In this document: one piece after another, positions 33,001 through 36,000 of the stretch
How the letters are laid out: the number at the start of each line of letters is the position of its first letter
Numbering within the stretch: position 1 is the stretch's first letter
From: Escherichia coli
Lineage (GTDB): Bacteria; Pseudomonadota; Gammaproteobacteria; Enterobacterales; Enterobacteriaceae
Strand: one strand, 5' to 3'
NCBI RefSeq assembly: GCF_030013205.1
Contig: NZ_CP122648.1
DNA: 64,000 bases
Position numbers: made by a program

Positions 33001-36000
33001 AGACTATCAGCCCGCAAACAACAAATGCGATGGCTGCGGTGAGATACATCACTTTAAAACTAAATCCCATTGCCAGCTCATAAGCGAGCGGTGGCCCGAT
33101 AACCCAGGCAAGCGAGATCTGAGCACGTAAAAATGTACTGAACATGACCGTCTCACGGCCTGTTCTGTCGGCGTGTTCACGGGCGAGGGCGAACATTTGC
33201 GGGTTTGCAGTGGAAGCAAAACTACTCAGAAGTACGCCCGTAGAGAGGAGAATGAAGTAGTTGCGATTCCACGCAAAAAGCGTGCAGGCCAGCACTCCAA
33301 ATAAGCAACATAGCAGAATCAGTAATTTACGGTCGCCTTGTTTATCGGAGTGCCTTGCCAGAAATTGACTGACCAGAATTCCCATAATAGCGCTACCGGT
33401 GAAGAAAAAACCTACCATTATAGGACGAGCTTTCAGTTCATCTGCGAGGAATATACTTAAGGTGGGAGTCTGGAGAGCGCCCGCAATACCAGTCAGAAAG
33501 GCGACAAGTAAAAATGCCGCGGCAGTGAGATCAAGTATTTTTGATGGAGTGGTAGCCGTTTTTTGCATTCTTCTGAATCACCGGGCGACAAAATATAACT
33601 GAGTTACAAATAAGTACCAGTCGAATGAGTATTGTATTAAGAATTTTTGAGTATCGCTGATACAACCAGAAAGCAATGCTAGCGCAATATTATAGGGCCA
33701 GCAATTGAGATTATTAGCAAAAGCATGTTAAGAATTAATCACCGAATTTATATATTAATTATAGTAAGGCAATGAGCTATTTTTGATAGTAAAAATAAAA
33801 CAAGTTGATTTGATATATTAAATGAAAAAATTAATCTTGATGACAGTCTGATTATTGGTGAAGTTTACAGGTCAGTTTTTTTCGCCAGCGGTTAAAGGAA
33901 TAGAATAGTCGTATAAAAAAGGGTGTTATGGAGCGTGTAAAACAATATCTTCACCTTAATGGCGATACAGTTGGCTGTGAGCCAGCAGGGGGCAAATCAC
34001 CTGCAAATAAACACGGCACATGCTGGCGCGCATATCGCGGATGCGTTCGAGGACAGAAGAACCGACAGGCGGATTCTTCAGCAGCTCATCGTCCATCACA
34101 AAACCTTTGACCAGGTATTTCTGAAGCCGATTGAATATTGAGCAGTAGAAAATATCTGGATTGACAGTATTACGAGGGGTTGGAGAACGTATGAAGAGGC
34201 AAATTGGCGGAAGATCACAGGAGTCGAACCTGCCCGGGACCGCTGGCGGCCCCAACTGGATTTGAAGTCCAGCCGCCTCACCGGAGACGACGATCTTCCG
34301 CGCCTCGATTGCTACATGGAGGCGGGGCGCATTATAGCTACTTCCTTGAGTTTCTACATCCCCCAGATCAGTTTTTTCCGCCTAATACACGCAGCGTATT
34401 ATCACGAAAGCATTATAATTCATATAAAACCCATATTTTACAATGATATATGAGCGGAATTAACGCTACCACGATCACATAAAACAAGAATCATAAATTA
34501 ATAACCAGATATCGGAATATTCGCTCTCACAGGGATGGTTTACAAAATGCGTTATCGGTCTCAGCACCTGGATTTGCCCCTATATTTCCAGACATCTGTT
34601 ATCACTTAACCCATTACAAGCCCGCTGCCGCAGATATTCCCGTGGCGAGCGATAACCCAGCGCACTATGCGGATGCCATTCGTTATAATGCTCGAACGCC
34701 TCTGCAAGGTTCTTTGCTGCCGTTAACCCGTCTGGTTTGGGCATGATACTGATGTAGTCACGCTTTATCGTTTTCACGAAGCTCTCTGCTATTCCGTTAC
34801 TCTCCGGACTCCGCACCGCCGTGTTCTTCGGTTCAAGTCCCAACATCCGGGCGAACTGGCGTGTTTCATTAGCCCGGTAGCATGAACCATTATCCGTCAG
34901 CCACTCCACTGGAGACGACGGAAGATCGTTGCCGAAGCGGCGTTCCACCGCTCCCAGCATGACGTCCTGTACTGTTTCACTGTTGAAGCCGCCGGTAGTC
35001 ACCGCCCAGTGCAGTGCCTCACGATCACAGCAGTCCAGCGCGAACGTGACACGCAGTCTCTCTCCGTTATCACAGCAGAACTCGAACCCGTCAGAGCACC
35101 ATCGCTGATTGCTTTCTTTCACGGCCACTCTGCCTGTATGTGCCCGTTTCGATGGCGGTACAGCAGGTTTTCGCTCAAGCAACAGCGCATTCTGGCGCAT
35201 GATCCGGTAAACACGTTTGGCATTGATCGCAGACATACCATCAAGTTCTGCCTGTCTGCGAAGCAGCGCCCATACCCGACGATAACCATACGTGGGCAGC
35301 TCTCCGATAACATGGTGTATACGGAGAAGCACATCCGTATCATCAGTGTGACGACTGCGGCGGCCATCCATCCAGTCATCGGTTCGTCTGAGAATGACGT
35401 GCAACTGCGCACGCGACACCCGGAGACAACGGCTGACTAAGCTTACTCCCCATCCCCGGGCAATAAGGGCGCGTGCGCTATCCACTTTTTTGCCCGTCCA
35501 TATTCAACGGCTTCTTTGAGGAGTTCATTTTCCATCGTTTTCTTGCCGAGCAGGCGCTGGAGTTCTTTAATCTGCTTCATGGCGGCAGCAAGTTCAGAGG
35601 CAGGAACAACCTGTTCTCCGGCGGCGACAGCAGTAAGACTTCCTTCCTGGTATTGCTTACGCCAGAGAAATAACTGGCTGGCTGCTACACCATGTTGCCG
35701 GGCAACGAGGGAGACCGTCATCCCCGGTTCAAAGCTCTGCTGAACAATTGCGATCTTTTCCTGTGTGGTACGCCGTCTGCGTTTCTCCGGCCCTAAGACA
35801 TCAATCATCTGTTCTCCAATGACTAGTCTAAAAACTAGTATTAAGACTATCACTTATTTAAGTGATACTGGTTGTCTGGAGATTCAGGGGGCCAGTCTAG
35901 CACCCCTATAGCATCAAGGAAAAGCAGATGAAGAGTGAAGTGTTGTCCGTTAAAGAGAAAATTGGTTATGGCATGGGAGACGCCGCCAGCCACATTATTT

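Follow-up and report, generated by a model that had tools for sequence, protein, structure and literature searches.

The window, a 64,000-nucleotide stretch of Escherichia coli DNA, carries on its minus strand the gene for tRNA-Sec, selC (34205-34299; anticodon UCA; called by ARAGORN and matching Rfam RF01852 at 83.8 bits), which is 100% identical to its K-12 counterpart. Beyond its 3′ end lies setC, a 394-aa ORF for a sugar efflux transporter (32384-33568, minus strand, as in the RefSeq annotation of the identical locus), and after setC the next gene on the same strand is yicL (31350-32273). The tRNA call and the setC ORF together leave a gap of 636 bp (33569-34204), as an initial annotation of this DNA had stated, and the composition profile likewise agrees with its description of an AT-rich stretch followed by a GC-normal segment: GC content is 0.20-0.36 across 33550-33900, with a core of 0.23 at 33700-33850, and 0.55-0.56 across 33950-34100 (about 52% for the GC-normal part as a whole), compared with 0.488 for the entire window. 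Read from selC towards setC, the interval consists of a flank of 78 nt lacking coding potential (34127-34204, minus strand), an internal fragment of a rhuM gene (33972-34126, minus strand, delimited by Pfam, BLASTP, tblastn and DNA alignment), an intermediate stretch (33898-33971) and the AT-rich region upstream of setC (33569-33897, minus strand).

On the other side of selC, between it and yicJ, the window harbors a complete IS2 of 1331 bp (34569-35899), with its transposase genes pointing towards selC and with the target duplication GCACC at 34564-34568 and 35900-35904. Located upstream of yicJ, at 24 nt from its start codon (35928), the element may cut yicJ-yicI off from their promoter. It is absent from K-12 and from the otherwise identical strain CFSAN018748, and the same insertion is found in only seven of 5426 complete E. 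coli genomes, all of them from swine and six named as ETEC.

The initial annotation considered the selC-setC interval unusually long, recalling a shorter one in K-12, and saw in it a possible remnant of a past integration or excision event. In K-12 MG1655, the spacing between the selC end at 3836316 and the setC start at 3836953 is exactly 636 bp, and a second MG1655 record gives 636 bp again. We used the interval with its margins (window 33469-34304, 836 nt) as a megablast query against the 5426 complete E. coli genomes. K-12 MG1655 matches 100% of the query at 96.4% identity, and the K-12 alignment that had been proposed as a check runs end to end, the very outcome named in advance as speaking against the proposal; the two intervals are colinear throughout, with two compensating 1-nt indels. 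The contiguous arrangement of selC, interval and setC is present in 3605 of the 5426 genomes, and the junction of relic, AT-rich block and setC in 4525 (about 83%), while about 950 have an island at selC. Given the same length and the end-to-end alignment with K-12, the interval is neither unusually long nor specific to the strain of the window, and the alignment refutes a strain-specific integration or excision event.

The GC-normal segment, in which only short ORFs with no recognisable product had been seen, can be assigned to a family. The minus strand at 33998-34126 matches Pfam PF13310 (Virulence_RhuM) with 38.5 bits against a curated gathering cut-off of 33.7 (E=1e-9), although this match spans only positions 50-105 of the 252 in the profile, and a complete domain in an intact frame is absent. 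Aligned with the intact RhuM of E. coli (345 aa), the fragment corresponds to residues 121-171, with 36 of 51 residues identical (71%) and a gap of eight residues (E=9e-21 in BLASTP, 9e-19 in tblastn), and at the DNA level the homology to intact rhuM runs from 34126 to about 33972, reaching about residue 185. The relic starts 78 nt after selC and retains 51 of about 345 codons, or 15% of the parent gene. A tblastn search of the interval with the full RhuM sequence, accepting E values up to 10, revealed no further credible fragments beyond residues 121-171, and no NCBIfam model matched the relic. The relic is already known to the databases: the K-12 reference annotation places the pseudogene yicT (b4653) at its position, and RefSeq records of the matching locus list a pseudogene "rhuM, RhuM family protein", incomplete at both ends. 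Our literature search found no paper describing it in E. coli.

The lesions in this fragment comprise two deletions, an internal one of 24 nt (eight codons) and another short one, together with a frameshift in the G-run at 33986-33990; the K-12 copy has an internal stop and a G-run of different length. Given the partial profile match, the deletion of eight codons, the frameshift and the stop in K-12, the relic is a pseudogene fragment of rhuM and not a gene. Between the window and K-12, relic and flank differ at 5-8% of positions, and third codon positions differ by 5.1% in setC and 6.8% in yicL. Judged by these figures the relic diverges at about the synonymous rate, and it is most likely non-functional.

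The remaining parts of the interval are less readily assigned. The 78-nt flank differs from K-12 at six of its 78 positions; in the locus of Escherichia sp. E1V33, selC and about the first 57 nt of the flank are matched at 89.5%, and in one Salmonella contig (L129) the sequence after the selC-end copy resembles the flank by eye. It represents either chromosomal flank of long standing or what remains of the left end of an earlier island. The stretch at 33898-33971 gave no significant protein or DNA match and is 92% identical to K-12, a neutral-like level; it is possibly further decayed rhuM. The AT-rich block (34% GC, 23% in its core) is better conserved, being 97.6% identical to K-12 and thus differing at only 2.4% of positions, fewer than in the relic. 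At the intact-rhuM locus described below, which lacks setC, nothing corresponds to this block, and it is presumed to be promoter and regulatory DNA of setC that arrived or stayed together with that gene. We only infer this role, since a promoter consensus scan of the interval yielded no convincing minus-strand promoter for setC; a terminator scan returned two weak terminator-like hairpins, near the shuffle expectation. Apart from the attachment site for islands next to selC, the putative setC promoter region would be the only working element of the interval.

The attachment site of present-day selC islands comprises the last 24 nt of selC and 12 nt of flank (34193-34228), a stretch that is duplicated on island insertion: genomes with an island at selC split the query into two places that overlap at query positions 725-760, corresponding to exactly these coordinates. 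Within the window we found no second copy of the selC 3′ end when searching with 30-mer and 20-mer patterns at up to three mismatches, the only match being selC itself, so that the direct repeat which the initial annotation had suggested looking for is absent. The best local alignments of the 46-nt attachment region with the DNA from selC to yicL score 16-20, where shuffled sequences average 18.3 with a maximum of 24. The best sense-strand candidate, CCTGTAAACTTCACCAAT at 33854-33871 (minus strand), which agrees at 15 of 19 positions, was rejected as a selC-end copy, as it scores below the shuffle mean; its likeness to the selC 3′ end is most likely due to chance. It sits at the boundary of the GC-normal and AT-rich parts. 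No integrase or mobility gene is present in the interval, which has no ORF longer than 99 aa and no other significant family match, and no island right end is left in it. The segment thus adjoins a tRNA 3′ end that is used as an attachment site, with both the distal repeat and an integrase lacking from the window. As the interval has neither selC-end copy nor right end nor integrase, the case for an island origin of its relic rests on homologues elsewhere.

The position of the relic relative to present-day islands is evident from genomes that carry one. In E. coli F070, the conserved right end and repeat of the selC island follow directly after its DUF4942 gene; the island ends with TTCGACTCCTGTGATCTTCCGCCA, and then come directly the 78-nt flank, the relic and setC. 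Similarly, in enteroaggregative strain EAEC 042 the selC 3′ end is reported to be repeated over 21 bp ahead of setC (PMC7058095). The relic lies outside the modern selC islands and is older than these.

An intact rhuM of 345 aa follows selC after 52 nt in 842-866 of the 5426 complete E. coli genomes (about 16%), among them the type strain ATCC 11775 as well as S88, UM146, IHE3034 and NU14, all of which we take to be members of phylogroup B2. In the type strain, selC is followed by a spacer of 52 nt, the intact rhuM (PF13310, E=4.5e-118), a spacer of about 112 nt and a degenerate copy of the selC end, then by a second, older rhuM fragment, a gene for a hypothetical protein of 122 aa, and yicL, with no setC. 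Within this setC-free region (L006, 2922-5341), the selC-end copy lies at 4219-4235 and reads, with its flank, CGACTCCTGTGAT----CGCCAAAATGCCTCT; its alignment score is 45, as against the 16-20 of the best candidates in the window. The older rhuM relic (about 4314-4535) covers PF13310 profile positions 104-173, and the hypothetical gene, which is AT-rich, has no Pfam match. The intact rhuM of the type strain lacks the upstream stretch TCTGGCATACTA that is conserved in Salmonella, Citrobacter and Serratia, and with only 52 nt between it and selC, read-through from the tRNA gene is conceivable. Across strains, the relic-setC junction (4525 of 5426 genomes) and the intact rhuM without setC (866) form a two-state polymorphism that appears to follow lineage rather than a sporadic presence or absence.

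Three metagenome contigs (L003, L004 and L005), in which a long 5′ part of rhuM is joined to the K-12-type relic and setC, were examined as a possible intermediate form and rejected, the arrangement being absent from all 5426 complete genomes. The rhuM 5′ part is like that of the type strain in L003 and L004, the latter with a private stop codon, and is another allele in L005. Either these contigs were chimerically assembled through about 52 nt of shared sequence, or they come from a rare lineage of recombinants.

The setting of rhuM in other genera is instructive. In Citrobacter the order is yicJ, selC, rhuM and a degenerate selC-end copy, and Pseudescherichia vulneris has the same order. Two Salmonella contigs contain a CP4-like island in which the DUF4942 gene precedes rhuM and which also carries CbtA/CbeA; there, rhuM is followed by some 115 nt of conserved sequence, at the end of which stands a copy of the selC 3′ end. 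This right end is also found behind rhuM in the E. coli type strain, Citrobacter and P. vulneris. This stretch of about 115 nt (…ATTTGGGGGTNCTTATGGGGGTTANTCATTTATCCAA…AATCAATA…; L129, L130 and L135, 5057-5175; L007, 4130-4245; L008, about 3720-3850, reverse strand) lies immediately before the distal selC-end copy and is about 80% conserved among E. coli, Salmonella and Citrobacter, irrespective of which gene comes last, rhuM or DUF4942; it is probably an arm of the island attachment site. RhuM is 92-94% identical among E. coli, Klebsiella aerogenes, Citrobacter and Salmonella, where YicJ is about 87-92% identical between such genera, and on these alignments we judge the identity of RhuM across genera to exceed what vertical descent would be expected to give. 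Taken together, these gene contexts identify rhuM as terminal cargo of a selC-integrating island family, and the short islets consisting of selC, rhuM and repeat as such islands minus their interior.

Further arrangements were seen around rhuM. In Klebsiella aerogenes (L131/L132, 3105-3769) a DUF6680 gene and a SymE-type toxin gene precede rhuM next to selC, and in Citrobacter (L135/L136, 5265-6496) the same pair of genes comes after it. In Escherichia albertii (L017), selC is followed by the flank known from the E. coli type strain, and rhuM is near-intact (87% protein identity); about 1.6 kb is inserted exactly between flank and gene (138-1743 nt from the selC 5′ end). Serratia fonticola (L133/L134, 4001-5038) carries a RhuM 88% identical to that of E. 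coli beside type VI secretion genes, with neither selC nor a copy of its 3′ end within 4 kb, showing that rhuM moves to other sites too.

A survey of one genome per species, scanned for the selC 3′ end, yielded 120 loci, of which 108 had at least 600 nt of downstream sequence. Of these 108 species, 16 have the start of a rhuM gene or fragment no more than 600 nt downstream of selC, and in seven more it lies farther downstream. All copies are on the strand of selC and none is upstream; only seven are near full length and most are fragmentary. With copies in this state, Enterobacterales commonly show a decayed rhuM next to selC, the E. coli relic being one example. At none of the 120 loci from other species does setC adjoin selC.

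We propose the following history. Islands of the CP4/P4-like kind, which insert at the selC 3′ end, carry rhuM last among their cargo, and most E. coli lineages would descend from an ancestor with such an island or its remainder. Its interior, along with the two ends of rhuM, would then have been lost through deletions, and DNA bearing setC with its AT-rich leader would have replaced the 3′ part of rhuM together with the island right end. The order of the deletions is inferred, and setC could either have been inserted in most lineages or have been lost where rhuM is intact. In Salmonella (L130), sequence outside the island resembles the 37 nt that separate selC from the intact rhuM, a likeness not expected from one integration and one deletion; remains of islands in several layers are therefore assumed. 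On this account the interval is what normally separates selC from setC in E. coli genomes without an intact rhuM, and its relic is an old island scar, near-universal in those genomes, rather than the product of a recent event. We hold this account at a probability of about 0.85. The integration/excision remnant put forward by the initial annotation survives in part, as an old scar containing a rhuM fragment; its recent or strain-specific character does not, given the identical length in K-12.

Three other explanations were weighed against an old scar. An island at selC could have been excised or deleted in the lineage of the window itself, leaving behind DNA that K-12 lacks. That selC is a known island site, occupied in about 950 of the 5426 genomes, and that the segment is a fragment of an island-type gene would both suit such an event; with the same 636 bp aligning end to end in K-12, the contiguous arrangement in 3605 genomes and no repeat of the selC end in the window, we nevertheless regard it as extremely improbable. 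It is also very improbable that the GC-normal segment is functional now, encoding a small protein or a small RNA. ORFs of 60-99 aa do exist in it, the candidates being a 99-aa ORF on the minus strand (33956-34255) and 60-aa ORFs on the plus strand, and some databases list "RhuM family" proteins of 46-113 aa from the same spot. These database proteins, however, vary in length and frame between strains, and the 99-aa ORF overlaps selC and has its frame broken in K-12 by the internal stop and a 1-nt indel. Divergence at the synonymous level also speaks against a function, as does an Rfam search of 33300-34700 at a permissive threshold, in which tRNA-Sec was the only RNA family detected.

The third explanation dispenses with mobile elements: rhuM would be a vertically inherited neighbor of selC in Enterobacterales that has decayed in place in most E. 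coli. It would account for the conserved adjacency and strand, with 16 of 108 species having rhuM close behind selC and none having it upstream or on the opposite strand, and for the similarity of the post-selC flank in Escherichia, E. albertii, Hafnia and Photorhabdus. It does not sit easily with the selC-end copy and island right end found behind rhuM in E. coli, Citrobacter, P. vulneris and Salmonella, with the location of the Salmonella rhuM inside a CP4-like island, or with RhuM being 92-94% identical across genera and still 88% identical in Serratia fonticola, where the locus has no selC. The type strain, moreover, is layered, with an older relic in addition to the intact gene. We therefore consider vertical inheritance unlikely and favor the descent of the relic from an island.

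The revised description is in the first place a correction: the spacing is normal, the segment listed as being of unknown origin has a recognisable one, and no recent island event is needed to explain it. Beyond this, the recurrence of rhuM or its fragments after selC, bounded by selC-end copies in several genera, provides a modest lead on island turnover at tRNA sites and on candidate defense genes. Intact E. coli RhuM matches the PADLOC candidate defense family PDC-S05 over its full length (E=3e-173), and RhuM has been proposed as a toxin domain from restriction-modification neighborhoods (PMC3710099); PHROGs gave no match for the intact protein. We regard rhuM as a candidate toxin gene or single-gene anti-phage system. 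We tentatively suggest, with somewhat less than even confidence, that rhuM could be the characteristic terminal cargo of selC-targeting CP4/P4-like islands across Enterobacterales, that successive integrations and interior deletions could have stacked layers of selC-end copy and rhuM behind the tRNA gene, two of them in the type strain and the single relic in the window, and that the intact but promoter-less rhuM kept by about 16% of E. coli genomes may be expressed by read-through from selC, acting as a single-gene anti-phage or toxin module. If so, the selC-proximal DNA of many species would constitute a readable record of island succession.

Several known systems provide a frame for the interval. 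A rhuM gene is located in SPI-3 at tRNA-selC in Salmonella (PMC3680342). It is homologous to the family of the relic and occupies the same tRNA locus, Salmonella RhuM being 94% identical to the intact protein of E. coli; the interval, by comparison, contains only a fragment of rhuM and no other island genes were found within it, and the relic carries no implication for virulence. Likewise, the similarity to PDC-S05 and to a toxin domain belongs to the parent gene, since 51 codons of relic cannot encode the protein. The closest equivalent is yicT (b4653), or the rhuM pseudogene of the PGAP annotation, which agrees with the relic in position and strand at about 95% sequence identity: yicT at 3836425-3836556 in K-12 corresponds to about 33965-34096 of the window, and the PGAP feature to 33965/33998-34126. 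The differences from yicT are only allelic, the window copy lacking the internal stop and having one G fewer in the G-run. Further islands of E. coli integrated at selC include LEE, PAI I of strain 536 and SHI-2. The selC islands of this species, such as selC-A of EAEC 042, attach at the selC 3′ end, leaving a direct repeat of it behind; the window has no such island, integrase or repeat, and its selC-setC interval corresponds to the DNA that lies just beyond such a repeat.
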